From Patescibacteria group bacterium (GTDB taxonomy: Bacteria; Patescibacteriota; Minisyncoccia; Minisyncoccales; CAZWNE01), in NCBI GenBank assembly GCA_038078735.1, contig JBBTTI010000001.1, positions 20,830 through 84,829 of the forward strand: 64,000 bases of DNA, in the 5' to 3' direction. Numbering within the stretch: position 1 is the first letter of the stretch; each line of letters begins with the position of its first letter. The position numbers were made by a program, and so were the translations under genes. Shown here one piece after another: positions 8,921 through 64,000 of the stretch. The notes under the pieces are model-generated. The model was not told the origin of the DNA, ran no database searches, and was given only the letters and a program-made list of their open reading frames with translations.

Positions 8921-8941
8921 GTTAGACGCTCAGCGTCTAAC
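8921..8941. repeat. REP-like palindrome GTTAGACGCTCAGCGTCTAAC
   Basis: Identical to 8191-8211. Confidence 0.85.
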
Positions 8942-8954
8942 ATTTAAAACCCCG

Positions 8955-23445: not shown

Positions 23446-23486
23446 CTTTCGTCAAAAAATGTTATTATTAAAATTTGCGATAAAAA

Positions 23487-23513
23487 ATACAGAGAACGGG
23501 TCTCTGTATGTTT
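23487..23513. repeat. Palindromic repeat ATACAGAGA-ACGGG-TCTCTGTAT(GTTT), intergenic copy
   Basis: 27 nt identical to 59044-59070 inside tsaD. Confidence 0.85.
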
Positions 23514-23639
23514 TTTTATTTGGGTAAAAAGTTGACAAAAGACGTTTATTTGTTAATCTTTGCGTAAGGCTCGCGCTGTAGATGTCAAACATCTACAGCT
23601 TTTTTTTATTTTTTTAATGGTTTTATGATAAAATAAAAT

Positions 23640-27061: not shown

Positions 27062-27067
27062 CAAGTG

Positions 27068-27420
27068 TGGAGGTGGCGAGTGTGAGCTCGCATCCAAGAA
27101 TTATTCTAAAGATAGTTCTACAAATGTATCTCATTTGCTTTAAGCAAGAAGTTTAAAATGAGAAAAATCTTCCTACTTTGAGTTCTTTGATTGTTCAATA
27201 GTTTTTCTAAACCCGCTGAAAAGTTATCTATCTCGCTGATATAACACCCCCTATAGCACCTAGCGAGAATCCGAGAAGGGGATGCCGCCTTAAGCTAAAG
27301 CTAAAGCGGGTTGTTTGTTGAATAGATTAGCATTTATTCTAGCTTCTCAAAGTTTTATGAGATTTGAGAAAACTCAAATTGCCTATCTTTATCAAATTCC
27401 CGTCGAAGCAATTCACCCCC
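27068..27420 (-). ncRNA. ssrA: tmRNA (ssrA), ~353 nt, CCA not encoded
   Basis: 5' GGGGGTGAATTGCTTCGACGGGAATTTG. Tag frame GCT AAT CTA TTC AAC AAA CAA CCC GCT TTA GCT TTA GCT TAA (ANLFNKQPALALA*). 3' T-arm-like GCGAG..CTCGC, then CACCTCC-A pairing with the 5' end, including G3-U. Confidence 0.85.
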
Positions 27421-29155: not shown

Positions 29156-30718
29156 ATGGCGCTCCGCGAAGAAATCAAAAAATTAACGGAAAAAGCGGTA
29201 AAAGAACTTTATGGGGAGCTTGCCTCGCCACAAGGCAAGGTTAGAATTGATCAGCCGGAGAATGCGGAGTTTGGCGATTACTCCACTAATGCGGCGATGT
29301 TGCTTAAGAAAAATCCTCAAGAAATCGCTAATGTCATAAAGTCAGATTTTTTGGAAAAAATAGAGGTAAAAAACGGATTTATCAATTTTTTTATCGCTAA
29401 AGAGTATTTGCAAAAACAAGTTAGCGAGATTTTAAAACAAGGGCAATCCTTCGGCAAGCTCAGGACTGGCTGCGGCCAGAAAATTAACGTTGAATTTATT
29501 TCAGCCAATCCAACCGGACCATTAACTTTAGGCAATGGTCGAGGCGGTTTTTGCGGAGATGTTTTGACAAATATTTTAGAAAAATCCGGGTATAAAGTAA
29601 CACGCGAATATTATCTTAACGATCGGGGCGAACAAATTATAAAATTAGGCCATTCAGTTTTAGGCGACGAAGAAGCTGTATATAAGGGGAAATATATTGA
29701 AGAGTTAAAAAGAGATGTTAAGAAGGGAAATAATATTGGCGAGGCTGGTAGTCAAGCCGCAAAAATTATTTTGGAGAAAATGATCAAACCGGCAATTAAG
29801 AAAATGGGAATAAAATTTGACACATGGTTTTCCGAGAAGAGTTTATATCAAAAAAGTGAGATTAAAAAAACTTCGGATCTTTTAAAAAAGAAAAGTTTGG
29901 TTTATGAAAACGAGGGAGCTCTTTGGTTTAAATCGACTCAATTTGGCGATGACAAAGACCGGGTTTTAATTAAAGAGAACAAAGAGGAAACTTATTTTTT
30001 ATCAGACATCGCTTATTTAAAAAACAAATTTGATCGTGGTTTTAAAAAGTTAATATTTTTCTGGGGAGCAGATCACTATGGCTATGTGGCGCGATTGAAA
30101 GCTGCAGCCGAGGCGTTAGGTTACAGAAAAGATCAGATAGATATAATTATTATGCAATTAGTGCGCTTGATGCAGGGGGGCCAAGAAGTCAGAATGGCAA
30201 AACGCACTGGAATTTATGTAACCATAGATGAGCTGATTGATGAAGTTGGCTTGGATGTCGCCAGATATTTCTTTTTAACCAGAAGTTCGGATACTCATTT
30301 GAATTTTGATTTGGATTTAGCCAAAGAACAATCAGAAAAAAATCCAGTTTTTTATATCCAATACGCATACGCGAGAATACACAGTATTCTCGCGAAATTC
30401 AAAAATCAAAATTCAAAAATCAAGATTACAACTAAAAATTTAAAATTATTAAGCCACCCTTCGGAACTCAATTTAATTAAGCAATTGATCAGATTACCGG
30501 AAATAGTAGGAGATACCGCTGGAGATTATCAGGTTCAGCGTTTGCCCCAATACGCAATAGATTTAGCGGTAGCTTTTCACCAATTTTACAGGGATTGTAA
30601 AATCCTGAGCGAAGCCGAAGGATTGCAGAAAGCTCGCTTGGGTTTGGTTTTGTCAACCAAAATAACTTTAAAAAACACTCTGGATTTAATGGGCATTTCC
30701 GCTCCGGAAAGGATGTAA
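29156..30718 (+). CDS. argS: Arginyl-tRNA synthetase
   Basis: SANPTGPLTLGNGRG (HIGH-like), DHYGYVARL, YIQYAYARIHSIL, DALR-type C-terminus ending in M. Confidence 0.95.
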   Translation: MALREEIKKLTEKAVKELYGELASPQGKVRIDQPENAEFGDYSTNAAMLLKKNPQEIANVIKSDFLEKIEVKNGFINFFIAKEYLQKQVSEILKQGQSFGKLRTGCGQKINVEFISANPTGPLTLGNGRGGFCGDVLTNILEKSGYKVTREYYLNDRGEQIIKLGHSVLGDEEAVYKGKYIEELKRDVKKGNNIGEAGSQAAKIILEKMIKPAIKKMGIKFDTWFSEKSLYQKSEIKKTSDLLKKKSLVYENEGALWFKSTQFGDDKDRVLIKENKEETYFLSDIAYLKNKFDRGFKKLIFFWGADHYGYVARLKAAAEALGYRKDQIDIIIMQLVRLMQGGQEVRMAKRTGIYVTIDELIDEVGLDVARYFFLTRSSDTHLNFDLDLAKEQSEKNPVFYIQYAYARIHSILAKFKNQNSKIKITTKNLKLLSHPSELNLIKQLIRLPEIVGDTAGDYQVQRLPQYAIDLAVAFHQFYRDCKILSEAEGLQKARLGLVLSTKITLKNTLDLMGISAPERM

Positions 30719-41678: not shown

Positions 41679-43069
41679 AAAATAAATTTTATATCACAAC
41701 CAGCATTGCTTATACAAATGCGTCTCCGCATATCGGCTTTGCCTTAGAAGCGATCCAGGCGGATGTTTTAGCCCGTTATCATCGAAATTTAAGTGAGGAT
41801 GTTTTCTTTTTGACCGGGACCGATGAGCATGGCGCGAAAATCGCCAAGGCGGCAGAAAAATCAGGTAAAAACCCGCAAGAATTCACCGATGAAATTTCTG
41901 CCAAATTTCATGGATTAACTAAGGGTTTAAATTTATCTAATGACGATTTTATCAGAACCACCGATCAGGCGCGGCATTGGCCGACAGTAAAAGATATTTG
42001 GTTGAAACTGAAAAAAAATAACGATATTTATAAAAAAAATTACAAAGGCCTTTATTGTCTAGGCTGTGAGGCTTTTATCACTCAAAAAGATTTAATTGAC
42101 GGAAAATGTAAGATCCATCTTAAAGAACCGGAAGCCATTGGCGAGGAAAATTATTTTTTCAGGCTTTCGAAATATTCAAACAAAATAGAAGAGTTGATTA
42201 AAAAAGATGAGGTAAAAATAATTCCCCAAGAAAAGAAAAACGAAATGTTAAACTTTGTCAGGCAGGGATTAGAGGACATCAGTTTTTCAAGGCCGAGTAA
42301 AGATTTGAAATGGGGCATACCTGTGCCAGATGACGATTCTCAAACAATCTATGTTTGGGCAGACGCTCTTGTGAATTACCTTCTCCCGAAGAAATATTGG
42401 CCGGCCGATATCCATTGTCTGGGAAAAGATATCTTAAGATTTCACGCCACAATTTGGCTGGGAATGCTTTTATCTTCAAAATTGCCCTTGCCAAAATCAA
42501 TTTTTGTCCACGGCTTTATAACTTCTAACGGCCAAAAAATGTCGAAATCATTAGGGAACGTAGTCGATCCGTTTGAATTAATTAGAAAATACGGCGCAGA
42601 CGCAGTTCGTTATTTTCTTTTGCGGGAAATTCCAGCAACCGAAGACGGAGACTTTACTATTGAAAAATTTGAGCAAAGATACAATGCTGATTTAGCCAGT
42701 GGGCTGGGAAATTTGGTGGCGAGAGTAATAACATTGGCCGAAAAATTCAAAATTCAAATCTCAAAATCCAAAATAAATCCAAAATTCGAAATTCAAATAA
42801 ATAAAACTCGAGAGAAATATAAAAAGGCGCTTGAGGAATTTAAATTTAACGAAGCTTTAATTGCGATTTGGGAGTTAATCAGTTTTTGCGACAAAATTAT
42901 AAACGAAGAAAAACCTTGGGAGGGAGGAAAAGAAAAAATTATAGATGATTTACAAATAACAATCATCGAAATTGCAAATTTAATAAAGCCATTTATGCCC
43001 GAAACCTCGGGAAAAATAATAGAGCAGATAAAAAATAGGGTTAGTCAGTCATTATTCCCGCGAATTTAA
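41675..43069 (+). CDS. metG: Methionyl-tRNA synthetase (short form)
   Basis: YTNASPHIGF (HIGH-like), KMSKSLGN. Confidence 0.95.
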   Translation: MKNKFYITTSIAYTNASPHIGFALEAIQADVLARYHRNLSEDVFFLTGTDEHGAKIAKAAEKSGKNPQEFTDEISAKFHGLTKGLNLSNDDFIRTTDQARHWPTVKDIWLKLKKNNDIYKKNYKGLYCLGCEAFITQKDLIDGKCKIHLKEPEAIGEENYFFRLSKYSNKIEELIKKDEVKIIPQEKKNEMLNFVRQGLEDISFSRPSKDLKWGIPVPDDDSQTIYVWADALVNYLLPKKYWPADIHCLGKDILRFHATIWLGMLLSSKLPLPKSIFVHGFITSNGQKMSKSLGNVVDPFELIRKYGADAVRYFLLREIPATEDGDFTIEKFEQRYNADLASGLGNLVARVITLAEKFKIQISKSKINPKFEIQINKTREKYKKALEEFKFNEALIAIWELISFCDKIINEEKPWEGGKEKIIDDLQITIIEIANLIKPFMPETSGKIIEQIKNRVSQSLFPRI

Positions 43070-43072
43070 AAT

Positions 43073-44002
43073 ATGATTTCTGTTTCTCAAATATTTTGGG
43101 TTTTATTTGTAATTTTTATCTTAGGAGCCGTTATTTTTGACCTTTATTTACAAGGAAGAAGGAAAAAAGAACTTTCCATGAGGGAGGCGGGTTTTTGGAC
43201 ATTAGGATGGATAGGTTTGGCGTTATTTTTCAATCTGCTAATTTATTTTTTCTTGGGGCATGAAAAAGCTTTGGAATTTTTCGCCGCTTATTTGTTGGAA
43301 AAATCGCTTAGTTTAGACAACCTTTTTGTTTTTTTGGTAATTTTTTCTTATTTTGATCTTTCCGTAATTGCCCAGCAGAAAATCTTAAAACTGGGAATTT
43401 TGGGCGCTTTTTTAATGAGAGCCGTTTTCATTTTCGGGGGCATTTGGCTCTTACAGAGATTTGATTTTCTTTTTTATATTTTTGGCGCTTTTTTGATTTT
43501 TACAGCGCTTAAGCTTCTTCTTCAAAAAGGGGAAAAAATAAACCCCCAGAAAAGCTTATTTTTGAAGATTGTAAGAAAATTTATTCCCATGGCAGACGAT
43601 TGCAAGGAAAATAAATTTTGTATAAAAAAAGAAGGAAAGCTCCATTTTACCCCTCTTTTTATTGCCTTGATTTTGATTGAAGGATCGGATTTGGTTTTTG
43701 CTTTAGATTCCGTGCCCGCAGTTCTAGCCATCACGCAAGATCCGTTTTTGGCCTATACTTCCAATGCCTTTGCCATACTCGGCTTAAGGGCTCTTTATTT
43801 TTTCTTAATCACTTTTTTGCCAAAATTCATTTACTTGGAAAAAGCCATAATAGCTTTATTGGCGTTTGTCGGCTTGAAAATGATTTTAAACCAGTTTTAT
43901 CATATTCCCCTGGCTTTTTCGATCGGCTTTATTTTATCGGTTTTGATAATTTCCATTTTATTGTCTTATAAAAAATTAAAAGAAAATGAAAGTGCTAATT
44001 GA
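43073..44002 (+). CDS. TerC-family integral membrane protein
   Basis: LLEKSLSLDNLFVF and EGSDLVFALDSVPA motifs. Confidence 0.8.
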   Translation: MISVSQIFWVLFVIFILGAVIFDLYLQGRRKKELSMREAGFWTLGWIGLALFFNLLIYFFLGHEKALEFFAAYLLEKSLSLDNLFVFLVIFSYFDLSVIAQQKILKLGILGAFLMRAVFIFGGIWLLQRFDFLFYIFGAFLIFTALKLLLQKGEKINPQKSLFLKIVRKFIPMADDCKENKFCIKKEGKLHFTPLFIALILIEGSDLVFALDSVPAVLAITQDPFLAYTSNAFAILGLRALYFFLITFLPKFIYLEKAIIALLAFVGLKMILNQFYHIPLAFSIGFILSVLIISILLSYKKLKENESAN

Positions 44003-44825
44003 TACGCACGCCCACGTGAATTTCAATGCTTTTAAGGATGATGCCGACGAAGTGATTGGCCGGTCTTTGGCTGGAGGAGTTCAAATGATAAATGTCGGTT
44101 CGCAGTATTCTACCTCAAAGAGAGCGGTAGAAATGGCTGAGAAATATGAAAGCGGAGTTTATGCGGCCATTGGGCTTCATCCGATTCATTTAGCCGATGG
44201 CATTTTTAAAACAAAATTAGACGAAGAAGAAGTAATTATTCCGACCAAAAATGAAGAATTTGATTCTGAAAAATATAAAAAACTCGCCAAATCTTCCAAA
44301 GTTGTTGCCATCGGTGAAATCGGCTTAGATTATTATTACCGGCCAAAAACTAAAACAAAACTCGAGGAATTCAAAGAATTGCAGAGAACGGTTCTCTGTA
44401 AACAGCTGGATTTGGCAAAAGAATTAAATTTGCCGGTTATTTTTCACTGCCGTTCAGCGCATAACGACTTAATAAACGAGATCCGATCTCGCGACGAAAT
44501 CGGATCTCCTAAAATACGCGGGGTAATCCATTGTTTCACAGGAACTTGGGAGGAGGCGCAGAAATATTTGGAAATGGGTTTTTATTTAGGGTTTAATGGA
44601 ATAATCTTTAAGCTTGATTTAAACGACGTGATTAAAAAAACTCCCCTAGAAAGAATTGTTTTAGAAACCGATTGTCCGTATTTAACTCCGAAGCCCATGG
44701 AAGGCCGCAACGAGCCTTTATACGTGAAATATGTCGCTGAAAAAATTTCGGAACTAAAAAATGTAAGCATTGAAGAAATATCTCAAGCTACCACTCAAAA
44801 TGCCAGAAAACTCTTTAGAATTTAA
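43986..44825 (+). CDS. tatD: TatD-family metal-dependent hydrolase
   Basis: LIDTHAHVNF, GEIGLDYYY, IFHCRSA, ETDCPYL. Confidence 0.9.
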   Translation: MKVLIDTHAHVNFNAFKDDADEVIGRSLAGGVQMINVGSQYSTSKRAVEMAEKYESGVYAAIGLHPIHLADGIFKTKLDEEEVIIPTKNEEFDSEKYKKLAKSSKVVAIGEIGLDYYYRPKTKTKLEEFKELQRTVLCKQLDLAKELNLPVIFHCRSAHNDLINEIRSRDEIGSPKIRGVIHCFTGTWEEAQKYLEMGFYLGFNGIIFKLDLNDVIKKTPLERIVLETDCPYLTPKPMEGRNEPLYVKYVAEKISELKNVSIEEISQATTQNARKLFRI

Positions 44826-44850
44826 TATCACGAGAACGGTTCTCGTGATA
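44826..44850. repeat. Perfect palindrome TATCACGAGAAC-G-GTTCTCGTGATA immediately after the tatD stop
   Basis: 12-bp arms and no T-run, so REP-like rather than a classical terminator. The GAGAAC..GTTCTC core recurs at 22713-22733. Confidence 0.6.
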
Positions 44851-44906: not shown

Positions 44907-47279
44907 ATGGAACAATACAACCCGCAGAGAATTGAAGCGAAATGGCAAAAATTTTGGGAGAAGAAAGGGTTTTATAAAACTGAAGATTCGAGTAAAAAAC
45001 CTAAAAAATATATTTTAGTTGAATTTCCTTATCCTTCTGGCGACGGCCTTCATGTCGGCCACGTCAGAAGTTATTCTGCTTTAGACGCGGTCTGCCGAAA
45101 AAAAAGAATGGAAGGGTTTAATGTTTTGTTCCCGATTGGCTGGGATGCTTTTGGTTTGCCGACAGAAAATTATGCCATAAAAAATGGCATCCATCCGAGC
45201 GCGGCCACGGGAAAAAATATAGCTAATTTTAAAAGACAGCTTAAGAGTTTGGGTCTGTCATTTGATTGGTCAAGGGAGATAAATACAACTGATCCCGAAT
45301 ATTATAAATGGACTCAATGGATCTTTTTAAAACTTTTTGAGAAAGACATGGCTTATCAAGCGGAAATTCCGGTTAACTGGTGCCCTTCTTGCAAAATTGG
45401 TTTGGCTAATGAAGAAGTAGTTGATGGAGCTTGCGAAAGATGTCATACGCCAGTCGGAGAGAAAACATTAAAGCAATGGATGATACGAATTACCAAGTAT
45501 GCCGACAGATTGATAGACGATTTGAAGAATGTTGATTTCCCCGAGCGCGTTAAATCCCAAGAAATAAATTGGATAGGAAAATCAGAAGGCGCAGAAATTA
45601 AATTTAAAATTGTCATAGGTGACACCTATGACAATTTACCAGTTTTTACAACAAGGCCAGATACGTTATTCGGCTGTACTTATTTAGTTTTATCGCCGGA
45701 ACATTCGTTAATCGAAAATTTAAAATTAAAAATTGAAAATTGGGACGAAGTCCAAAAATATCGCAAAGAAGCGAAAAAGAAAAGCGAGCTGGAAAGAACG
45801 GAATTAACTAAAGATAAAACCGGTGTGGAATTAAAGGGAATAAAAGCGATAAATCCGGCAAACAATGAAGAAATTCCTGTTTTTGTGGCAGATTATGTTT
45901 TATCTTCTTATGGAACCGGCGCCATTATGGCGGTTCCGGCTCATGATCAGCGCGATTTTGATTTTGCCAAAAAATATAATCTGCCGATTAAAATTGTTGT
46001 TGACGATAAGGAACGCTTGGTTGATTCTGGAAAATTTAACGGGATGGAGTCAGATGTTGCTAAATGGGAAATTACTAAGTTTGTTGGCGGGAAGAAAACA
46101 ATAAATTACAAATTAAGGGATTGGGTTTTTTCAAGGCAACATTATTGGGGAGAGCCCATTCCAATTATTCATTGCTTGAAATGCGGCCAAGTGCCGGTGC
46201 CGGAAAAAGATTTGCCGGTAGAGCTTCCTTACGTTGAAAAATACCAGCCAACAGGAACCGGCGAATCGCCCTTGGCAGTTATCACGGATTGGGTTAATGT
46301 TAAATGTCCGAAATGCGGCGGCCAGGCTAAGCGGGAAACTGACACTATGCCTAATTGGGCCGGATCTAACTGGTATTATTTAAGATATCTAGATCCGAAA
46401 AATAATAAAGCCTTGGCTGATGTTAAAAAAATAAAATACTGGATGCCTCTTGATTGGTATAACGGCGGTATGGAACATACCACTTTGCATCTTTTATATT
46501 CCAGATTTGTTTACAAATTTTTATATGACATCGGGATAGTGCCGTCTTCCGAGCCTTACCAAAAAAGAACTTCCCATGGCATGGTTTTAGCCGAAGACAA
46601 CAGGAAAATGTCCAAGTCTTTTGGCAATGTCATTAACCCGGACGATATTGTCAAAAAATTTGGCGCTGATTCATTACGTCTTTATGAAATGTTTATGGGG
46701 CCATTTGATCAGGCAATTGCTTGGAGCACGAACGGCTTAAGAGGTTGTTACAGATTTTTAAATAAAGTTTGGCAATTACAATTTAAAGTTAAAAGAGACT
46801 TAGTCTCCCACTTAGAGACTAAGTCTCTAAGTCGCTTGTTACATCAAACGATTAAAAAGGTGACGGAGGATATAGAAAGTTTAAATTATAATACGGCAAT
46901 TTCAGCCTTGATGATTTTAGTTAATCAATCAGACCAAATAACAAAAAATAGTTTTGAAATTTTATTGAAATTGCTGGCGCCATTTGCGCCGCATATTGCT
47001 GAGGAATTATGGAGCAATTTAGGCAATAAAAATTCTATTTTTGAAGAATCTTGGCCGAAATACGACGAAAAATTAATGCAGGAAGATAAAATCAACTTGA
47101 TTATTCAGATTAACGGCAAATTCCGAGATAAGATTGAGGTCGAGGCTGAAATCTCCGAAGGCGAAGTTAAAAAATTGACTTTAAATCGGGAAAAAGTTAA
47201 ACAATGGGTAGCAGGTAAAGAGATTAAAAAAATAATTTTTATTAAAAATAAACTAATCAATATTGTATGTGCGGAATAG
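44907..47279 (+). CDS. leuS: Leucyl-tRNA synthetase
   Basis: PYPSGDGLHVGHV (HIGH), KMSKSFGN, CP1 editing TTRPDTLFG. Confidence 0.95.
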   Translation: MEQYNPQRIEAKWQKFWEKKGFYKTEDSSKKPKKYILVEFPYPSGDGLHVGHVRSYSALDAVCRKKRMEGFNVLFPIGWDAFGLPTENYAIKNGIHPSAATGKNIANFKRQLKSLGLSFDWSREINTTDPEYYKWTQWIFLKLFEKDMAYQAEIPVNWCPSCKIGLANEEVVDGACERCHTPVGEKTLKQWMIRITKYADRLIDDLKNVDFPERVKSQEINWIGKSEGAEIKFKIVIGDTYDNLPVFTTRPDTLFGCTYLVLSPEHSLIENLKLKIENWDEVQKYRKEAKKKSELERTELTKDKTGVELKGIKAINPANNEEIPVFVADYVLSSYGTGAIMAVPAHDQRDFDFAKKYNLPIKIVVDDKERLVDSGKFNGMESDVAKWEITKFVGGKKTINYKLRDWVFSRQHYWGEPIPIIHCLKCGQVPVPEKDLPVELPYVEKYQPTGTGESPLAVITDWVNVKCPKCGGQAKRETDTMPNWAGSNWYYLRYLDPKNNKALADVKKIKYWMPLDWYNGGMEHTTLHLLYSRFVYKFLYDIGIVPSSEPYQKRTSHGMVLAEDNRKMSKSFGNVINPDDIVKKFGADSLRLYEMFMGPFDQAIAWSTNGLRGCYRFLNKVWQLQFKVKRDLVSHLETKSLSRLLHQTIKKVTEDIESLNYNTAISALMILVNQSDQITKNSFEILLKLLAPFAPHIAEELWSNLGNKNSIFEESWPKYDEKLMQEDKINLIIQINGKFRDKIEVEAEISEGEVKKLTLNREKVKQWVAGKEIKKIIFIKNKLINIVCAE
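46795..46831. repeat. Two tandem REP-like palindromes inside leuS (GAGACTTAGTCTC; CTTAGAGACT-A-AGTCTCTAAG)
   Basis: The second differs from the RAYT-flanking 6456-6476 palindrome only by a compensatory G/C to A/T arm change and the central base. Confidence 0.8.
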
Positions 47280-53274: not shown

Positions 53275-53612
53275 GGAAAAATATAAGAATATTTCTCCTT
53301 CATATCTTAGAAAGCATAGAAAGGATAGAAAGTTTTACAGCGGGGATATCTCGCGAGAAGTTTTTAGAGTCGGAAATGATTCAAGACGCAGTTATTAGAA
53401 GATTAGGAATTATTGGAGAAGCAGTTAAAAATTTACCCCAAAGTTTTAAAAATAATCACCAGGAAATTGAATGGAAAAAAATTGCGGGGACAAGAGATAT
53501 TATTATTCATGAATATTTCGGAGTAGATTTAAAGCTTACTTATAAAATTATTGAAAAAGATATCCCAGAATTAAAAGAAAAAATATCAGAGCTATTAAGA
53601 AAAATTAGTTAA
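53271..53612 (+). CDS. HepT/DUF86 HEPN-domain toxin
   Basis: RDIIIHEYFGVD (Rx4-6H HEPN motif). 4-nt overlap with the MNT gene. Confidence 0.85.
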   Translation: MRKNIRIFLLHILESIERIESFTAGISREKFLESEMIQDAVIRRLGIIGEAVKNLPQSFKNNHQEIEWKKIAGTRDIIIHEYFGVDLKLTYKIIEKDIPELKEKISELLRKIS

Positions 53613-53618
53613 ATTAGT

Positions 53619-53674
53619 TAAACTCTTTCTATTTTGGCGCCGAGGAGGCGGAGTTTTTCGTCGAGTTTTTCATA
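53619..53674 (-). repeat. Duplicate of the last 56 nt of murA (encodes YEKLDEKLRLLGAKIERV*)
   Basis: 54/56 identity with 54332-54387; both differences are synonymous. Confidence 0.85.
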
Positions 53675-53689
53675 ATCTCGATCAAATAT

Positions 53690-54324: not shown

Positions 54325-54330
54325 AATAAG

Positions 54331-55590
54331 CTAAACTCTTTCTATTTTGGCGCCGAGGAGGCGGAGTTTTTCATCGAGTTTTTCGTAGCCCCGCTCTATT
54401 TGGGAAACGTTGTCAATTTGAGTTTGGCCTTTGGCAATCAGACCGGCTAAAATAAGAGCCGCTCCCGACCGGATGTCGTTAGAATCTATTTTATTGCCGG
54501 TCAGCTCGGTTTTGCCGAAAATTAAAGCTCGGTGGGGGTCGGTAATTTCGATGTCGGCTCCCATTTTTCTTAATTCATGCAAATGCTGGAATCGATTTTC
54601 GTAAAGAGGATCGTGAATCAGGCTTTTCCCTTGAGCCTGAGTAAGCAGGACCGAAACTGCCGGCTGTAAGTCGGTTGGAAATCCGGGATAAGGAAGAACT
54701 TGAATTTTTGTGGGGAAGAATTCTTTTGCCGGTTTGATTAAAACTTCATTAGCGCCAATTTCAAAATTTACGCCGATTTCTTTCATTTCTCCCCAGAACA
54801 TTGTCAGATGGTCGGGATCAATATTTTTAATTTTTCCCGTTCCCCCTGTAATGGCAAAAGCGATAAAAAAAGTGCCAATTTCCAGCGGGTCGGGTGAAAT
54901 TTTAAATTCAGCCCCATTTAATTTCTTTCCGCCTTCAATTTCAATATTATGAGTGCCGATACCTTGAATATTAACTCCCATTTTTCTCAACATATTTCCC
55001 AAATCTTGGACTTGAGGTTCAGCGGCGGCAATTTCAATTCTAGTTTTGCCCTGGGCTTGGCTGGCCACCATCATAGAAATTTCCGTAGCCGTAACTGAGA
55101 ATTCTTTTAAAACAATATGTTTTCCTTCCAGAATTTCCGGCGCTTCAAAGCAGTAGAAGCCATCTTTTTCTTCCACTTTTACTCCAAAGTTTTGCAGAGC
55201 TTTCAGGTGGGTAGAGATTGGCCGTAATCCGATTTTATCTCCGCCGGGATGAGGAACTTTAAATTTTTTAAATCTGGTTATAAGAGAGCCTATCAGTAAA
55301 ACCGAAACTCTCATTTTTTCAAAAAGATCGCTTGGTATTTTTTCCGGATTGATATTTTTAGGATCAATTTTTACTTTTCTATCGTTCAGCCATTCAACTC
55401 CGGCACCCATTTGCTTCAAAATTTCAATTTGATCTAAAACGTCGGAAACTCTGGGTAAATTATCAATAATTGACGGCTCTTCGGAAAGTAAAACCGCCGC
55501 CAAACAGGCGCCGGCCGAGTTTTTATATCCGGAAATTTCCACTTCCCCGGAAAGTGGCACCCCGCCCTGAATGAGAAATTTAGATGCCAT
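54331..55590 (-). CDS. murA: UDP-N-acetylglucosamine 1-carboxyvinyltransferase
   Basis: MASKFLIQGG..LSGEVEISGYKNSA, HPGGDKIGLRPI, FPTDLQP. Confidence 0.95.
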   Translation of the reverse strand: MASKFLIQGGVPLSGEVEISGYKNSAGACLAAVLLSEEPSIIDNLPRVSDVLDQIEILKQMGAGVEWLNDRKVKIDPKNINPEKIPSDLFEKMRVSVLLIGSLITRFKKFKVPHPGGDKIGLRPISTHLKALQNFGVKVEEKDGFYCFEAPEILEGKHIVLKEFSVTATEISMMVASQAQGKTRIEIAAAEPQVQDLGNMLRKMGVNIQGIGTHNIEIEGGKKLNGAEFKISPDPLEIGTFFIAFAITGGTGKIKNIDPDHLTMFWGEMKEIGVNFEIGANEVLIKPAKEFFPTKIQVLPYPGFPTDLQPAVSVLLTQAQGKSLIHDPLYENRFQHLHELRKMGADIEITDPHRALIFGKTELTGNKIDSNDIRSGAALILAGLIAKGQTQIDNVSQIERGYEKLDEKLRLLGAKIERV

Positions 55591-57917: not shown

Positions 57918-58466
57918 ATGAGGAATATGGAAAATATAGAATTAGCCGTGGAAATTATAAAAAATGGAGGAGTGATTATCTGCCCAACCGATACGGTTTA
58001 CGGTTTAATTTGTGACGCGACCAATAAAAAAGCAGTCGCCAAAGTTTTTAAAATAAAAAAGAGGCCAAAAAATAAGCCTTTGCCGATTTTTATTAAAGAC
58101 CTAAAAATGGCAAAAGAATTAGCGCAGATTGATGAAAAACAAGAGAAATTTTTAAGAAAAGTTTGGCCCGGTGCGGTCACGGTTATATTAAAATCGCGAA
58201 AGCAAAAAGATAAAACTATCGGCCTTAGAATTCCAAATTACAAGTTATTGCTCGGCTTAGCCGAGCAACTCAATAGGCCGTTAACTGGGACTTCAGCGAA
58301 CTTGTCCGGCCAACCAGCGTCGGGCAATATTAAAAAAGTTTTAAAGCAATTTGAAAATCAAAAATACCAGCCTGATTTGGTAATAGATGCCGGCAATCTG
58401 CCGAAAAGTAAGCCATCAAAAATAATTGATTTAACTGTATGCCCGCCAAAAATACTAAGACCATGA
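57918..58466 (+). CDS. tsaC: L-threonylcarbamoyladenylate synthase (YrdC/TsaC type)
   Basis: GGVIICPTDTVYGLICDA...RIPNY...TSANLSGQP. Confidence 0.9.
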   Translation: MRNMENIELAVEIIKNGGVIICPTDTVYGLICDATNKKAVAKVFKIKKRPKNKPLPIFIKDLKMAKELAQIDEKQEKFLRKVWPGAVTVILKSRKQKDKTIGLRIPNYKLLLGLAEQLNRPLTGTSANLSGQPASGNIKKVLKQFENQKYQPDLVIDAGNLPKSKPSKIIDLTVCPPKILRP

Positions 58467-59485
58467 AAATTTTAGCCATAGATACATCTTGTGACGACAC
58501 CGCAATCGCCGTATTAGAAATTAGAAATTTGAAATTAGAAATTTTGTCTAACGTCGTGTCGTCGCAAGTGAAACTTCATGCTAAATATGGAGGGGTTTAT
58601 CCTATGTTGGCCAAGAGAGAGCATCTGAAAAATTTACCTCTTGTTTTTAAGCGCGCCCTTCGACAGGCTCAGGGTAAACTATCTGATATAGATTATGTCG
58701 CGGTGACCGTCGGCCCGGGGCTTGAACCTTGCCTATGGCAAGGGATTAATTTTGCCAAAGAGCTGTCAGAGAAACTAAAAAAACCATTAATTTCAGTCAA
58801 TCACATAGAGGGCCACATCTTGGCCAATTTAATTGAGGGGAATCGGATTCCACTCAAATTACCGGCTATCTGTTTGGTTGTTTCCGGGGGGCATACACAG
58901 CTGATTTTAATGAAAGGAATCGGGAAATACAGATTGGTTGGCGAAACGAGAGACGACGCCGCTGGTGAATGCTTTGACAAAGCTGCTCGGATTTTGGGGC
59001 TAGGTTACCCGGGCGGCCCCATAATTTCTAAATTAGCAAAAACATACAGAGAACGGGTCTCTGTATGTTTACCGAGGCCGATGATGTATACGAAAGACTA
59101 TGATTTTAGTTTTTCTGGGTTAAAAACGGCAGTTTTGTATAAAACTAAAGAATTTAAAAAAATAAACTCTAAAATAAAAACTGAATTCTGCCACGAAATC
59201 CAACAAGCGATTATTGATGTTTTAATTAAAAAAACCATAAAAGCAGCTAAAGATTTCAGGGTAAAATCAATAATCTTAGGTGGCGGTGTCACGGCTAATC
59301 GAGAGTTAAGAAAACAATTTGGAGAAAGAATTAATAAAGAAATCCCGGATACTAAATACTTGATACCAGATACTAAATACTCGACTGACAACGCCGCTAT
59401 GATCGCAGTCGCAGCTTATTTTCACAGAAACAAAAAAGTTAAAAACTTTCAAAACATCAAAGCAAATGGTAATCTAAGTTTATGA
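58463..59485 (+). CDS. tsaD: tRNA N6-adenosine threonylcarbamoyltransferase
   Basis: MKILAIDTSCDDTA, VNHIEGH, GGHTQL, GYPGGP, FSFSGLKT, STDNAAMIA. Confidence 0.95.
   Translation: MKILAIDTSCDDTAIAVLEIRNLKLEILSNVVSSQVKLHAKYGGVYPMLAKREHLKNLPLVFKRALRQAQGKLSDIDYVAVTVGPGLEPCLWQGINFAKELSEKLKKPLISVNHIEGHILANLIEGNRIPLKLPAICLVVSGGHTQLILMKGIGKYRLVGETRDDAAGECFDKAARILGLGYPGGPIISKLAKTYRERVSVCLPRPMMYTKDYDFSFSGLKTAVLYKTKEFKKINSKIKTEFCHEIQQAIIDVLIKKTIKAAKDFRVKSIILGGGVTANRELRKQFGERINKEIPDTKYLIPDTKYSTDNAAMIAVAAYFHRNKKVKNFQNIKANGNLSL
59044..59070. repeat. Palindromic repeat ATACAGAGA-ACGGG-TCTCTGTAT(GTTT), in-frame copy inside tsaD
   Basis: 27/27 identical to intergenic 23487-23513. Encodes TYRERVSVC between the conserved GYPGGP..SKLA and PRPM blocks. 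Confidence 0.85.
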
Positions 59486-60813
59486 ATTTAAAACAATCCG
59501 ATCCAAAAGTTTATGAGCTGATTGAGGCTGAAAAACAAAGGCGCCGAGAGGGTTTAGAAATGATTCCTTCAGAAAATCACACCTCGCCGGCTGTTCTGGA
59601 AGCGCTTGGCTCTATTTTAACTGACAAGTATGCCGAAGGTTATCCCGGTCGGCGTTATTACGGCGGCAACCAGATTATTGATCAGGTTGAAACTTTGGCT
59701 ATTGAAAGAGTAAAACAGGCTTTTGGCGTGCCTTATGCCAATGTCCAGCCGTATTCGGGCAGTCCGGCAAACTTTGCTGTTTATCTGGCGGTTTGTCAGA
59801 ACGGGGACACGATAATGGGGCAAAATCTTTCAGACGGCGGCCATCTCACTCATGGTTGGAAAACTAACTGGTCTTCAAGATTTTTTAAAAGTGTTCCTTA
59901 CCATGTGAAAGCTGACGGCTATATTGATTTGGAAGAAGTGAGAACTTTGGCCAGAGAGCATAAGCCGAAATTAATTTGGTGCGGAGCCACAGCTTATTCG
60001 AGGGAAATTCCTTTCGAGGAATTATCAAAAATTGCCGATGGAGTCGGAGCTTATTTAGCAGCTGATATTGCCCATATCGGTGGCCTGATTGTTGCCGGTG
60101 TTCATAAAAGTCCGGTGTCTTTTGTTCATATTATTACTTCTACTTCCCACAAAACCTTGAGAGGACCAAGGGGCGGATTTATAATGATTACTCAAAAGGG
60201 GTTAGATAAGGATCCGGATTTGGCTAAAAAAATGGATAGCGCTGTTTTCCCCGGTGGCGCGCAAGGCGGCCCGCACGAACACCAGATAGCGGCCATAGCC
60301 GTTGCCTTAGGCGAGGCTTTAAGACCTGAATTTAAAGAATACGGGAAACAAATTGTTAAAAATTCTAAAGTCTTGGCCGAAGAATTAATGAAAAAAGGGG
60401 TAAAGTTAGTTTCTAATGGCACCGATAACCATATGATGCTGATTGATCTGACTCTTTATGGGAATGGCATGGGAGTATTTTTGGAAAAAGCTTTAGATTC
60501 GGCCGGTATTACTGTAAACAAAAATACTATTCCCTTAGAACCGTCTTCGCCATTTTATCCGAGTGGCGTAAGATTAGGGACTCCGGCAATTACTACCAGG
60601 GGAATGAAAGAAGGGGAAATGAAAATAATTGCCGGTTGGATAGCTGAAGTTGTCAATGAAATAAAAAATTATAAATTGCCGGGCAATAAAGAAGAAAGGC
60701 AAGAATATTTAAAAAGATTTAAAGAAGAAATTGCTAAAAACGAAACATTGAAAAAAATAAAACAGCAAGTTTTGGAACTAAGTAAAAGATATCCTATCCC
60801 AGCAATAAATTGA
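59482..60813 (+). CDS. glyA: Serine hydroxymethyltransferase
   Basis: LEMIPSENHTSPAV, TSTSHKTLRGPRGG (PLP Lys). Confidence 0.95.
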   Translation: MNLKQSDPKVYELIEAEKQRRREGLEMIPSENHTSPAVLEALGSILTDKYAEGYPGRRYYGGNQIIDQVETLAIERVKQAFGVPYANVQPYSGSPANFAVYLAVCQNGDTIMGQNLSDGGHLTHGWKTNWSSRFFKSVPYHVKADGYIDLEEVRTLAREHKPKLIWCGATAYSREIPFEELSKIADGVGAYLAADIAHIGGLIVAGVHKSPVSFVHIITSTSHKTLRGPRGGFIMITQKGLDKDPDLAKKMDSAVFPGGAQGGPHEHQIAAIAVALGEALRPEFKEYGKQIVKNSKVLAEELMKKGVKLVSNGTDNHMMLIDLTLYGNGMGVFLEKALDSAGITVNKNTIPLEPSSPFYPSGVRLGTPAITTRGMKEGEMKIIAGWIAEVVNEIKNYKLPGNKEERQEYLKRFKEEIAKNETLKKIKQQVLELSKRYPIPAIN

Positions 60814-61592
60814 TGGTTTTATTAGACGGGAAAAAAATAGCTGATGAAATTTTGGCTAATTTAAAAACCCGCGGGAAAAAAATAAAACTGGCGGTAATTT
60901 TAGTCGGGGAAGATTCGGCTTCCCTAATTTTTATTGAACAAAAACGAAAAGCTTGCGAAAAAGTAGGAATAGATTTTGAGCTATTTAAGTTTTCAGCAGA
61001 GATCGGGTCTCTGTTACTTAAAGAAGAAATTAAAAAAATTATTGGTGATCCTAAAAATTCTGGAGTAATTATCCAACTTCCTCTGCCCGAGCAATTTAAT
61101 ACCGGAGAATTTTTGAATTTAATTCCTGAAGAAAAAGATGTTGATGTTTTGTCCGAAAAGAGTTTCGGAAAATTTTCCAGAGGCGAATCATTGATTCTGC
61201 CGCCGACTGTCGGAGCCATTTCAGTTCTTTTTAAAAGTTATAAAATAGAAATAGAGAATAGGAATATTGTTATTGTTGGTGCTGGCCGTCTAGTCGGCAA
61301 GCCCTTAGTCGCCTGGCTAAAATTACAAGGGGCTAAGTTTTCCGTATTAGACGAGTCGGTTAAAGATATTTCCTCTTATACCGCTAAAGCCGATATTCTA
61401 ATTTCTGGCGTTGGCGAACCGAACTTAGTTATGGGCAATATGGTTAAAGAAGGGGTAGTAGTGATTGATTTTGCTAAAGATATTGATTTTGAATCAGTTT
61501 CTAAAAAAGCCAGTTATATCACCCCTGTCCCCGGCGGCATCGGCCCGATAACCGTCGCCTGTCTGTTGGAAAACTTGACTAAACTATCATAG
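60810..61592 (+). CDS. folD: Methylenetetrahydrofolate dehydrogenase/cyclohydrolase
   Basis: LDGKKIADEI, VGEDSAS..., VVIVGAGRLVGKPL, TPVPGGIGPITVA. Confidence 0.9.
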   Translation: MMVLLDGKKIADEILANLKTRGKKIKLAVILVGEDSASLIFIEQKRKACEKVGIDFELFKFSAEIGSLLLKEEIKKIIGDPKNSGVIIQLPLPEQFNTGEFLNLIPEEKDVDVLSEKSFGKFSRGESLILPPTVGAISVLFKSYKIEIENRNIVIVGAGRLVGKPLVAWLKLQGAKFSVLDESVKDISSYTAKADILISGVGEPNLVMGNMVKEGVVVIDFAKDIDFESVSKKASYITPVPGGIGPITVACLLENLTKLS

Positions 61593-61602: not shown

Positions 61603-61637
61603 TATAAATAGCTTTTTTTATTTTTCACTTGCGAGTA

Positions 61638-61684
61638 GCCATAGCCAGAAACCACTGACTCTTTCGGTGTTTTCTGGCTATGGC
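61638..61684 (+). promoter_or_regulatory. Long leader hairpin (GCCATAGCCAGAAA ... TTTCTGGCTATGGC) in the 5' UTR of the DGR target
   Basis: 14-bp perfect arms plus an inner CAC/GTG. No T-run. Lies between the promoter and RBS AGAAGGAGGAG. Confidence 0.6.
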
Positions 61685-61719
61685 TGCAAGAAGTGGCCAT
61701 AAGCAGAAGGAGGAGAACA

Positions 61720-62358
61720 ATGAGTAAGCCTATTACAATTGGTCAGTCTCACAACGTTATCTCGATCCTGGCAAACAATGCGGATTGGAATGCCCTTGCA
61801 AACAGCGGAGATGCTTTACAGGCAATAATTGACCATCCGCAAGAGTCTGGCGAGCAGTTTACCCTGTTTCTCAAGAATAGCGGCAAGATGATTGTCGGCG
61901 AACCGAGAATTATTCCCATCGACCGCACCGCGCCTTTTGACCCGGTAAAACTCTTGGGCCAGGGCTGGACCATCGAGGAGCAGGACGAGCGTTCCCTTGC
62001 CCTGACCCAGGTGAATCTCGCCAACGTCTGGCTTGAGCACATGCTCAACAAGGGCGAAGACTGGATTACGGGCGAAGAGAAGCTGAGGCGCCTGAAGAAA
62101 GCGAACAGCATCCGCCTGGATGCCAAGGTTTTCCAGACCCTTTGGGAAGATAAATCATTGATTCCCGAGGCCTGGAAAAAGAAGACCAAAGGAAATGCTG
62201 CATATATCTTCTTTGATGGGACCGTTCTGCGCGACCCTGATGGTTCTCGCTGTGTCCTCTACCTGTGCTGGAGAGATGGCCAGTGGCGCTGGAACTACTA
62301 CTGGCTCGACAGCGACTGGAGCGCTAGCGATCCGTCCGCTGTCCTCGCAAGTATCTAA
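61720..62358 (+). CDS. DGR variable (target) protein, 212 aa
   Basis: ATG 61720 with a strong RBS (the track GTG start at 61693 is less likely). The C-terminal 42 codons are the VR. Confidence 0.85.
   Translation: MSKPITIGQSHNVISILANNADWNALANSGDALQAIIDHPQESGEQFTLFLKNSGKMIVGEPRIIPIDRTAPFDPVKLLGQGWTIEEQDERSLALTQVNLANVWLEHMLNKGEDWITGEEKLRRLKKANSIRLDAKVFQTLWEDKSLIPEAWKKKTKGNAAYIFFDGTVLRDPDGSRCVLYLCWRDGQWRWNYYWLDSDWSASDPSAVLASI
62225..62350 (+). repeat. DGR variable repeat (VR)
   Basis: 114/126 identical to the TR. All 12 differences lie opposite TR adenines. Confidence 0.9.
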
Positions 62359-62382
62359 TTTTGCCCTTTGAACTTCGTCTGT

Positions 62383-62416
62383 AAATCCCCGAAACATTAT
62401 GTTTCGGGGATTTTTT
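62383..62416 (+). terminator. Hairpin AAATCCCCGAAAC/GTTTCGGGGATTT + T-run, 33 nt after the VR (a terminator and/or the DGR target-recognition hairpin)
   Basis: 13-bp perfect stem, 5-nt loop. Confidence 0.75.
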
Positions 62417-62666
62417 ATTTTGTGATAAAATAAAGTTGGCAATAGGCGAATACGCGGACGGCTACGGCTTTCCGCTGCCGAACCCAGTATTCATGCGCTC
62501 GGAATATTTCTGGCTACGGCTTGAGATAGGGCGGCGCACGAGGATTCCAAAAAACTAAAGATACTTGGTATAGAATGCTATGGCATTTTCGATGCCGGAT
62601 TAGATTCAACCCGGAGATCGCCATTATGGCTTCAGGGGGTGGTGGCATAGGTGGCATTCTATACAT

Positions 62667-62792
62667 TTCTGCGCGACCCTGATGGTAATCGCTATGTCCT
62701 CTACCTGTACTGGAAAGATGGCCAGTGGAACTGGAACTACAACTGGCTCGACAACGACTGGAACGCTAACAATCCGTCCGCTGTCCTCGCAA
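62667..62792 (+). repeat. DGR template repeat (TR)
   Basis: Same orientation as the VR. AAC/AAT/TAT/TAC/AAA codons at exactly the positions that differ in the VR. Confidence 0.9.
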
Positions 62793-62802
62793 CTTTCTTT
62801 AT

Positions 62803-63210
62803 TTACCCGCCCAATTTTAGGCGGGTTTGTTTTACAAGCTGGCCCTGCCAGCCGCCGAGCATTTTCCCTAGTTCGTCTATTTTTAAGGATAGAGCTATGT
62901 ATTTTTTATCATCCAGGGATTTTGTTTCCCAGCACATCATTAAGAATATTTTAAGAGTGTCTATTTTTCTTCGTGCTAAACGGACGTAAGGCAATTTTTC
63001 TTCTTTGTTAAGAAATCCGGCGGTAGTTATTGCTTCTATGGCGTTAACAAAAAGATTGTCGATTTTCTGCCCGAGCGAATACCGGTGCGTTTTTGGTATA
63101 ATCGGATAATATTGGTACCAAAGAAGATAAGCGCTTTTCGCCTTCTGTAAAATTGGCAAAAGGGCGGGGCGGGGGGGGTTAGAAGTATGAATAAAATTAA
63201 GCTGGTTCAT
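62803..63210 (-). CDS. avd: Avd-like accessory variability determinant (four-helix-bundle family)
   Basis: YYPIIPKTHRYSLGQKIDNLFVNAIEAI...KIDTLKIFLMMCWE...IDELGKMLGGWQ pattern. Lies on the strand opposite to the TR and RT. Confidence 0.75.
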   Translation of the reverse strand: MNQLNFIHTSNPPRPALLPILQKAKSAYLLWYQYYPIIPKTHRYSLGQKIDNLFVNAIEAITTAGFLNKEEKLPYVRLARRKIDTLKIFLMMCWETKSLDDKKYIALSLKIDELGKMLGGWQGQLVKQTRLKLGG

Positions 63211-64000
63211 AATTATGATTATATCATTTCCATTGAAAACCTGCTTTTGGCGTGGAAGGAATTTTTAAAAGGGAAAAGGCATCGCAAAGATATGCAGGAG
63301 TTTGAATTCCGGCTGATGAATAATATCATTTCTCTGCACGATGATCTAGCCGCTAAAACCTATATTCATGGCGGTTATCATGCCTTCAAAATTTATGACC
63401 CGAAACTGCGGGACATCCACAAAGCAAGCGTACGGGACAGATTGTTGCATCATGCCGTCTACAGGGTTTTATATCCATTCTTTGACAGAATTTTTATATC
63501 AGATTCTTTTTCCTGCCGGCTCGGCAAGGGCACTCATAAGGCAATTAATAGATTTAGAGATTTTAGCCGTAAAGTATCTAAAAATAATACGAAAACAGCG
63601 TGGGTTTTGAAGTGCGACATTAGAAAGTTTTTTGCCTCGATAGACCAGAAGATACTGATTGATATTATAAAAGATTTCATACCAGACAAAGATATTGTTC
63701 GGCTCATTTCTGAAATTATCGGCAGTTTTTATTCAACCAAGGAAGGCAAGGGTCTGCCCCTTGGCAATCTTACTTCCCAGCTGCTGGTCAATATTTATAT
63801 GAATAAATTTGACCAATTTGTAAAACACAAACTCAAAGCAGAATATTATATCCGCTATGCGGACGATTTTGTCATTTTATCGAAAAATAAGGAATGGCTC
63901 AGATTGGCGTTGAAGGAAATGGGTAATTTTCTGCAAGATAAGCTAGACTTGCAATTGCACCCGAATAAAGTATCAATAGAAACCCTTGCTTCCGGAGTAG
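63188..64000 (+). CDS. DGR-type reverse transcriptase (3' end beyond the window)
   Basis: Manual translation: RDIHKASVRDRLLHHA, SFSCRLGKGTHKA, KCDIRKFFASIDQ, GLPLGNLTSQLLVNIYM, YIRYADDFVIL. Not in the ORF track because there is no stop before the window edge. Confidence 0.9.

Follow-up and report, generated by a model that had tools for sequence, protein, structure and literature searches.

How does a short palindrome come to stand, letter for letter, both in an intergenic spacer and in the reading frame of an essential gene? The question is raised by a 64,000-nucleotide stretch of DNA from a Patescibacteria group bacterium (contig JBBTTI010000001.1, positions 20,830 to 84,829, referred to here as the window), in which the 27-mer ATACAGAGAACGGGTCTCTGTATGTTT is found between two genes and again within tsaD. 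The 27-mer is very likely the core of a repetitive extragenic palindrome (REP) of ∼33 nt, termed REP-1a. REP-1a would belong to a system of REPs and REP-associated tyrosine transposases (RAYTs) of the candidate phyla radiation (CPR), and the tsaD copy would lie in a permissive loop that has long been occupied by palindromes and is subject to turnover or homogenisation.

Exact copies of the 27-mer are present in the window only at 23487-23513 (intergenic) and 59044-59070 (tsaD). This 27/27 match had been pointed out in the first-pass annotation of the DNA, and the identity in fact extends over 32 nt with one mismatch (23482-23513, AAAAAATACAG..., and 59039-59070, AAAACATACAG...). The match was also said to be far beyond chance, and 100 dinucleotide-preserving shuffles of the sequence yielded no such repeat. 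The looser pattern CAGAGA-N3-9-TCTCTG has four matches in the window and none in the shuffles. The four consist of the two exact copies, a variant in folD that the first-pass annotation had described correctly, and a variant in tatD that it had overlooked. The three coding copies, in tsaD, tatD and folD, are read in three different frames. Chance and codon-driven convergence were rejected as explanations, given that the shuffles have no matches and that synonymous-codon shuffles fail to reproduce the intragenic hairpins.

The host gene is identified as TsaD by Pfam (PF00814) and by its similarity to solved TsaD structures (E = 4e-74), and the protein is 94% identical to one named TsaD by NCBI in a metagenome-assembled genome (MAG) of Patescibacteria. 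The palindrome has a perfect 13-bp stem and a 5-nt loop. It is read as the codons AAA ACA TAC AGA GAA CGG GTC TCT GTA TGT TTA, flanked by GYPGGPIISKLA and PRPM. The peptide TYRERVSVC, placed earlier in the variable linker before PRPM, is thus part of KTYRERVSVCL, which makes up the entire linker. As single-stranded DNA the tsaD copy folds with a dG of -12.1 kcal/mol (z = -11), and the intergenic copy with -8.9. In an AlphaFold model of the protein (mean pLDDT 84), residues 192-201 are helix and 202-225 coil, with block means of 84 and 78 over residues 201-220. The linker carries a two-residue insertion relative to the solved bacterial TsaD 8iey and is one to five residues shorter than in most CPR orthologues, so that the earlier remark that the palindrome does not obviously lengthen it is a fair one. 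Because the helix ends in coil at this point and the insertion is of two residues, the segment encoded by the REP takes the place of a variable connector between two invariant TsaD motifs; this linker probably lies on the protein surface. An assembly artefact, a possibility raised at the outset, is ruled out because independent assemblies agree: the tsaD sequence is identical in L001 and L002 (fetched loci are cited by L numbers), and the tsaD of the closest relative (94% amino acid identity) has the same REP in two further assemblies, L026 and L027.

The linker DNA of 85 TsaD loci was taken for comparison. In 20 of them the linker contains a perfect palindrome whose stem measures from 8 to 29 bp; 38 have a genuine 7-nt tandem array in its place; the remaining 27 have neither, and the more distant of these display a short, plain linker of the AKKGxxxIxL type. 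Stems vary with the lineage, for example GGTCGAGAAC-A-GTTCTCGACC, GGCAGAGGTC-A-GACCTCTGCC and TAGAGGCC-CG-GCCTCTA. The axis of the palindrome is nevertheless found exactly 16.5 nt before the Pro codon of PRPM in 17 lineages, that is, at the middle base of the same codon. Some linkers carry doublets (L055, L072, L078, L088, L104). The proximal unit of the L072 doublet, worked out by hand, is in the same register, and the other tsaD doublets are likely to be so as well. The REP-1a core (AGAG..CGG..CTCT) is found in register, with compensated stem changes, in three distant orthologues of 65-69% amino acid identity: L023 (TAGAGAACGGGTCTCTA), L024 (ACAGAGATCGGATCTCTGT) and L112 (ACAGAGGGCGGGCCTCTGT). 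The first-pass annotation had held that the same segment in distant orthologues would speak against insertion, and this is in part what is seen, as these orthologues share both the core and its codon positions. Palindrome-type and array-type linkers are interspersed on a neighbour-joining tree of TsaD, which is weak and too poorly resolved for gains and losses to be counted. Because the same axis and core recur in diverged lineages and linker types are interspersed on the tree, the best reading of these sequences is that the loop would have been occupied by palindromes for a long time, with its content turning over, and would not have been hit once recently.

The element is not confined to this genome. 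The 19-mer ACAGAGAACGGGTCTCTGT was scanned against one genome per species (GTDB representatives), a procedure that favours perfectly conserved copies. It detected 20 loci, nearly all in CPR MAGs (Nealsonbacteria, 'Patescibacteria group' and third-party-annotated 'Saccharibacteria'), with 26 copies over roughly 14 MAGs and 1-4 copies in each. The extended consensus, REP-1a, is AAAACATACAGAGAACGGGTCTCTGTATGTTTT. Dispersal within the window amounts to two exact and two variant copies per 64 kb. Inverted doublets, in which two copies are 4-6 nt apart, are found in L006 and L019 (both in murD) and in L008, L015 and L021; the window's own copies are singlets. The last three loci come from a MAG labelled 'Gammaproteobacteria' (CAYHPG01; 46-49% GC), with the inverted 19-mer doublets in genes for LeuRS and a Cu-ATPase. 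Either the MAG is mislabelled or the element has spread beyond the low-GC CPR lineage. A match in Chryseobacterium (L016) resembles an ordinary terminator.

In several of these genomes the palindrome borders a transposase gene. Inverted copies at 2627(-) and 3393(+) flank a 241-amino-acid open reading frame (ORF), 2660-3385, in L005. An orthologous ORF in L017 (3083-3808) has copies on either side, at 3052 and 3811; L013 has a single copy ahead of its orthologue. ORFs of the L005/L017 type match Pfam Y1_Tnp (IS200-like) above the cut-off (E = 1.5e-10), and the best NCBIfam match of the RAYTs is REP-associated tyrosine transposase (REP_Tyr_transpos; 35-50 bits, curated cut-off 80). The HUH motif MPNHxHLL and the tyrosine motif YIxxNP are invariant in four transposase sequences. 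The family comprises more than 2000 relatives at E <= 1e-10, of which few have a source name, and those are all labelled CPR. L005 was also considered as a close relative with a swapped RAYT cassette, and this was dropped. The similarity of L005 and L022 to the window is mosaic (exo 95% at the nucleotide level, PolX 80% in L022, fabD about 51%), and because of this no recent swap is claimed.

The window's own genome has RAYT-like genes as well, each with a palindrome family of its own. The RAYT at the start of the window, which is the syntenic one, is bracketed on both sides by a variant palindrome, ATACAGGGGTTGCACCCCTGTAT, termed REP-1b and not REP-1a (L028:268-1090). A third, similar hairpin is located within the coding sequence (CDS) of this gene and encodes KKYRGTTPVNS. 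The second RAYT is bracketed by the identical palindrome TGTTAGACGCTCAGCGTCTAACA (REP-2), and three diverged copies of the TGTTAGACGCTCAGCGTCTAACA type are found elsewhere in the window, at 28593, 38605 and 52840. Contig L113, of the same assembly and the same coverage, carries three further Y1_Tnp genes in 20 kb. One of them is flanked on both sides by AAAATGTCATAGGTGACACCTATGACATTTT, a member of whose family (REP-3) is found inside the LeuRS gene of the window. In L114, a REP beside a RAYT is accompanied by a copy in the CDS of an aminoacyl-tRNA synthetase (aaRS).

Copies within genes are the rule here and not an oddity. About 10 of the 26 exact 19-mer copies (∼40%) are inside full-length housekeeping genes. 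The hosts are rsmA (L003 and L007, at the same site), murD (L006 and L019), a class II aaRS of the Asp/Asn/Lys type (L004), a GT4 glycosyltransferase (L012 and L020), the Cu-ATPase (L008) and LeuRS (L015) with their doublets, and tsaD in the window. The copies occupy five of the six possible frames, and the peptide varies with the frame (YRERVSV, TENGSLY, QRTGLC, YRDPFSV, TETRSLY). The 33-mer of REP-1a is free of stops in all six frames; among random palindromes matched to it in design and base composition, only 6% are. The first-pass proposal of a REP-like element tolerated in frame is supported, and more strongly than the sequence alone could show: the palindrome flanks a Y1/HUH (RAYT-like) gene in relatives and is found in frame in at least six other housekeeping genes. 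Perfect hairpins are frequent in the coding part of the window more generally: seven have stems of 11 bp or more and five reach 12 bp or more, where genes with shuffled codons or shuffled synonymous codons give 0.25 and 0.05, respectively. These hairpins are in the genes for a Mur ligase, RtcA, ArgRS, LeuRS (three overlapping hairpins at two sites) and TsaD, and a 10-bp hairpin is present in that for TsaC/Sua5. The palindrome in the RtcA gene (REP-1d) has the GAGAAC-N-GTTCTC core that is shared by many copies. Its core, GGAGAACCGTTCTCC, is found again as the doublet in the tsaD linker of L072. A different palindrome family, CCCC[T/C]ACACCAAA..TTTGGTGT[A/G]GGGG, is present in CDSs of two CPR genomes (L111:11746-11771, L112:14990-15016), with one copy in TopA.

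Several comparisons bear on how the tsaD palindrome came to equal the intergenic one. The window's tsaD copy is identical over 27/27 nt to the intergenic copy and also to the consensus that flanks RAYTs in other genomes. Relative to L026, the closest relative (tsaD 95% identical at the nucleotide level), there are no differences in the REP and 13 in the preceding 67 nt. In L111, the 17-nt core of the tsaD palindrome, CAGAGAAC-N-GTTCTCTG, is also found intergenically and in a class I aaRS gene, all within 18 kb. For other lineages mostly no second copy of the tsaD palindrome was detected in flanks of 1.5 kb, too short a stretch; in longer flanks there is a second copy in L111 but none in L112. 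The folD loop carries different palindromes in the two genomes: the window has GCAGAGATCGGGTCTCTGT and L026 has CACGAGAACGGTTCTCGTG (L026:3066-3084), the rest of the gene being 91% identical, and the L026 form equals the window's intergenic hairpin at 44826-44850 (REP-1c) over all 19 nt. No palindrome is present in the folD loop of L112. In the REP that precedes the RAYT, the loop of L005 has the opposite orientation to that of L013 and L017, the stem and flank being the same. The folD difference and the loop inversion fit RAYT-mediated hairpin exchange and quasi-palindrome template switching alike. The tsaD site has long borne palindromes, and one recent insertion de novo is a poorer explanation of the 27/27 identity than turnover or homogenisation within the REP family, whether this came about through gene conversion, through re-insertion or through template switching. 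Of the two routes named earlier, insertion or gene conversion, the first in its simple form is therefore the less favoured, and the second stays among the candidates.

A possible course of events is as follows. Copies may be made or exchanged by a RAYT acting on a folded single strand, by analogy with the E. coli TnpA-REP protein in vitro, and/or through short-patch gene conversion and template switching at quasi-palindromes. With 89% of the genome coding, survival would be limited to copies that lack stops and fall in permissive surface loops. The tsaD loop would represent an old landing site where axis and codon register are fixed and the sequence is periodically replaced or homogenised toward circulating REP variants. 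The window's tsaD copy would then be identical to the intergenic one because it was homogenised toward the REP variants of its own genome. Most probably the tsaD copy serves no function in its own right; the intergenic copy may double as a bidirectional terminator-like hairpin.

The intergenic copy is located between ORF 22868-23392 and a PolX-like ORF, 23640-25343. The 250-nt spacer has three terminator-like hairpins (23414, 23487, 23575), of which the REP is the second. In keeping with the terminator-like character suggested from the outset, it matches a terminator consensus on both strands. The copy in tsaD lacks a T tail, which makes premature termination there unlikely. The intergenic REP is part of a 92-nt block that is nearly identical in L022 and also contains a promoter-like element, TTGACA-16-TAATCT, and GCGTAAGGCT (window 23483-23607; L022:6100-6400). 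The genes around the block differ. In the window there is a paralogue of the target of a diversity-generating retroelement (DGR), and in L022 the block lies between an AbiEii gene and a split reverse transcriptase. Because different genes flank the conserved block in the two genomes, the intergenic REP sits at a junction of variable cargo. In the window the block is followed by a hairpin and a T run, and a very short transcript could be formed; in L022 it leads into a structured, GC-rich stretch that starts with GTGCG and into the split reverse-transcriptase ORF, possibly a retroelement. The DGR-target paralogue is ORF 22868-23392 (174 amino acids). It shares the C-terminal motif CxxWxxGxWxxxxxWLxxDW with the DGR target and resembles it in the 3' flank, which has ACTTCGTC and a 15-bp hairpin. 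Its equivalent of the variable region (VR) is only about 60% like the template repeat (TR), with differences that are not A-specific. Pfam has no match for the target or for the paralogue.

Other origins of the tsaD palindrome have been weighed against a REP/RAYT element in a long-occupied loop. The most serious of them, though itself unlikely, is that the hairpin is a selected structure of the gene or mRNA kept by compensatory evolution, such as a signal for translation to pause between the two TsaD halves, an RNase or stability signal in the tsaC-tsaD-glyA-folD operon, or a palindrome bound by a protein; the likeness to REPs would then follow if all such palindromes must suit the same binding protein. 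In its favour are the axis at an identical codon position in 17 diverged lineages, with stems that differ yet are fully compensated, and the synonymous positions of AGA GAA CGG GTC TCT, which are identical between orthologues of only 65% amino acid identity. A REP that is unchanged between L026 and the window, in a locally very divergent stretch, and the core GAGAAC-N-GTTCTC common to many copies, point the same way. A selected signal is harder to reconcile with a palindrome (stem at least 8 bp) in only about 20 of 85 TsaD loci, with 7-nt arrays replacing it in 38 and plain linkers in the distant ones, or with linker types interspersed on the tree. Nor does it fit the fact that the same palindrome stands beside transposase genes and in intergenic spacers and is read in five frames within unrelated genes. 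Rfam at the gathering threshold has no match to the REP hairpin, and quasi-palindrome template switching can keep perfect symmetry without selection (PMC7202029). The same process is the basis of a second and considerably less probable proposal, that palindromes arise and are perfected in situ by template switching without a transposase, the tsaD/intergenic identity being due to ectopic gene conversion alone and the RAYT link to RAYTs that happened to land beside hairpins. Perfect arms about a fixed axis, the inverted loop in L005 and the compensated double changes that separate the folD palindromes of the window and L026 are what this predicts. It does not account for identical copies of ∼27-33 nt at non-homologous sites in many genomes and genes, for the dispersal of the palindrome families, or for RAYT paralogues that are each bracketed by their own family, which is the arrangement that defines a REPtron, as described below. 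A link to the DGR was also considered, in which the hairpin would be a target-recognition hairpin downstream of variable regions, since the intergenic copy is 95 nt downstream of the DGR-target paralogue and tsaD is 2.6 kb upstream of the DGR. It was rejected, and its probability is negligible: the main VR (62225-62366) is followed by another hairpin (62383-62413), and no VR- or TR-like sequence is present next to the tsaD, folD or tatD copies. Elsewhere the copies are beside RAYTs or in housekeeping genes, with no DGR gene noted among neighbouring ORFs, which were only read and not systematically annotated.

Several points weigh against the assignment to a REP/RAYT system itself. Copy number appears low, and location is not mainly extragenic, a large minority of the 26 copies being within CDSs; classical REPs number in hundreds and are extragenic. 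The GTAG and CGTC tags are both absent from the consensus AAAACATACAGAGAACGGGTCTCTGTATGTTTT, as read from the sequence. The putative RAYTs score 49.8 against the curated NCBIfam cut-off of 80. No RAYT bordered by REP-1a was found in the ∼100 kb of this genome that were covered; the window has two Y1_Tnp genes and L113 three, and all five have other palindromes at their flanks. The strict constancy of the axis in tsaD is unlike the outcome of independent transposition and could reflect selection for a hairpin at that site. Even so, a REP-1a core in a long-occupied, permissive tsaD loop is judged the most probable explanation.

The closest known systems are in Proteobacteria. A study by Nunvar from 2010 is said to belong among those on REPs and RAYTs of this phylum. 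Systems of REPs or REPINs (inverted REP doublets) with a RAYT (TnpA-REP), known as REPtrons, have been described there (Bertels and Rainey, 2011, PMC3116915; Ton-Hoang/Corneloup, 2021, PMC8266576). They are defined by a Y1/HUH transposase gene bracketed by its own short palindrome, with paralogues that each have their own family (PMC3116915; PMC8266576). Co-evolution of RAYT and REP is established (PMC3116915; PMC5581495; PMC8266576), and processing of single-stranded DNA is documented (PMC8266576). The CPR element resembles REPtrons in its ∼30-nt palindrome folding as a single-stranded hairpin, in copies dispersed, at apparently low number, with inverted doublets in some genomes, in a Y1/HUH gene flanked on both sides by the cognate palindrome (L005, L017), in several RAYT paralogues with REP families of their own, and in a frequent position directly after genes as a terminator-like hairpin. 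It differs in its CPR host with a genome that is 89% coding, in low copy number (two exact and two variant copies per 64 kb), in the ∼40% of copies that are intragenic, in the absence of a GTAG/CGTC tag, in RAYTs of ∼240 amino acids that fall below the curated NCBIfam cut-off, and in that a cognate REP-1a RAYT was not found in ∼100 kb of this genome.

Intragenic REPs are already known. Single REPs and dimers have been found in frame in housekeeping genes of Opitutus terrae, Thauera and others (Di Nocera et al., 2013, PMC3733652). These add about 10-30 residues (dimers 20-30) and are regarded by the authors as tolerated copies that remain after selection (PMC3733652). The CPR copies are likewise single or doublet elements in frame in housekeeping genes; those of PMC3733652 carry GTAG or CGTC tags, many are in replication and repair genes, and a palindrome persisting at one codon position of one gene across a radiation is not reported there. 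Rickettsia palindromic elements (RPEs; Ogata et al., 2000), as presented in PMC10969869 and PMC3733652, are found in frame in many essential genes of a small, reduced genome and are compatible with the fold and the function of the proteins. Judged by these second-hand accounts, both are selfish palindromes in frame in unrelated genes, here tsaD, tatD, folD, rsmA, murD, aaRS, GT4 and ATPase genes. The RPEs summarised there are unrelated in sequence and larger, ∼100-150 bp and 30-50 residues compared with 27-33 nt and 9-11 residues here, and no dedicated transposase is known for them from those accounts. Template switching at quasi-palindromes (PMC7202029) accounts for perfectly matched arms, for compensated changes of several bases and for loops inverted about a fixed axis. 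It is a process of mutation, not an element, and alone it leaves the identical copies at unrelated loci and the transposase link unexplained. What differs here is the host phylum, the low copy number, the high intragenic fraction, the absence of a tag and the persistence of register across a radiation. A full-text literature search found no description of REPs in CPR genomes, and the one paper in which both terms appear is unrelated.

The 7-nt arrays that alternate with palindromes in tsaD are a feature of their own. When all fetched loci were scanned under strict settings, 58 arrays had period 7, many of them in L031-L112, compared with 0-3 for each of the periods 4-6 and 8-11. In ∼45% of CPR orthologues the TsaD linker is filled by a heptanucleotide array, and the unit is specific to the lineage, for example (AAACTAC)5, (GAAATCC)4 or (AATTTTC)4.5. 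Slippage by one unit would shift the frame because 7 is coprime to 3. One unit may recur in several loops of a gene (L108, three arrays) or on both strands (L068). Coding genes of the window have arrays of period 7 at 30395-30447, 42742-42797, 45710-45742, 58513-58543 and 59348-59381; the last two, in tsaD, encode LEIRNLKLEIL and IPDTKYLIPDTKY. Such arrays are reminiscent of the short tandemly repeated repetitive (STRR) sequences of cyanobacteria, and a search of the literature found nothing on heptanucleotide arrays in CPR.

The window ends in the DGR mentioned above (61693-64000), in which all 12 VR/TR mismatches in the first 120 nt are at TR adenines. A 22-nt inverted repeat (61637-61685) directly precedes the target gene. 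Elsewhere a 72-nt sequence is present twice (53612-53683 and 54325-54396), with 89% identity between the copies and a distance of 713 nt. Rfam at gathering level detects in the window only a tmRNA gene (27065-27420, minus strand) and one tRNA gene (11290-11361, plus strand). The principal features are collected in Table 1.

Table 1. Positions of palindromes, transposase genes and other features in the 64,000-nt window
Feature	Position	Strand	Remarks
RAYT-like Y1/HUH transposase gene, 3' end	1-250	+	240 aa; complete gene is L028:339-1061
REP-1b palindrome AAAAATACAGGGGTTGCACCCCTGTATTTTT	249-279	+	flanks the RAYT at the window start; stem foot ATACAG/CTGTAT as in REP-1a
REP-2 palindrome	8188-8214		flanks second RAYT
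Second RAYT-like Y1/HUH transposase gene	8231-8899	-	Y1_Tnp match
REP-2 palindrome	8919-8943		flanks second RAYT, opposite side
Long perfect palindromes in Mur ligase, RtcA, ArgRS, LeuRS and TsaC genes	10171-10199, 15223-15253, 30370-30394, 45607-45637, 46794-46832, 58248-58268		
REP-1d, perfect 31-nt palindrome ATATTTACGGAGAACCGTTCTCCGTAAATAT	15223-15253		inside RtcA gene (14442-15416, minus strand)
REP-1a, intergenic copy	23482-23513	+	terminator-like on both strands; within 92-nt block conserved in L022
REP-1 variant CAGAGAACGGTTCTCTG in TatD-family gene (43986-44825)	44382-44398	+	encodes LQRTVLC; frame differs from tsaD copy
REP-1c palindrome TATCACGAGAACGGTTCTCGTGATA	44826-44850	+	begins at last base of tatD stop codon (ORF end 44825 plus 1)
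REP-3 palindrome in LeuRS gene (44907-47279)	45607-45637		family flanks a RAYT on contig L113, same assembly
tsaD, host gene	58439-59485	+	348 aa; also two 7-nt arrays, 58513-58543 and 59348-59381
REP-1a, copy in tsaD	59039-59070	+	13-bp perfect stem, 5-nt loop; encodes KTYRERVSVCL, the entire variable linker
REP-1 variant GCAGAGATCGGGTCTCTGT in folD (60810-61592)	60996-61014	+	core 60997-61013, CAGAGATCGGGTCTCTG; encodes AEIGSL, third frame
DGR target gene	61693-62358	+	VR about 62225-62366
DGR TR	62667-62808		
DGR bAvd	62803-63210	-	
DGR reverse transcriptase	from 63292		runs off the window

A broader and more doubtful idea may be put forward for CPR bacteria, which have nearly no intergenic space. 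REPIN-like replicators might be housed in their essential genes at long-lived 'landing pads' such as the TsaD linker, where register-locked palindromes and heptanucleotide arrays would alternate, possibly with mediation by RAYTs; arrays or hairpins might in turn modulate the synthesis of N6-threonylcarbamoyladenosine (t6A) or other core functions.

REPs and RAYTs have been studied mostly in Proteobacteria, and the present case reveals a large family of RAYTs with cognate palindromes in CPR/Patescibacteria. The genomes are tiny and densely packed with genes, and a large share of their palindromes is found in frame inside core genes. For annotators, this accounts for odd, lineage-specific peptides in otherwise conserved proteins. 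The TsaD linker, with the same axis, dozens of stems and an alternation with 7-nt arrays, represents a natural series on how palindromes persist, are homogenised and are replaced in an essential gene, and it also allows one to ask whether RAYTs exchange hairpins at fixed sites.

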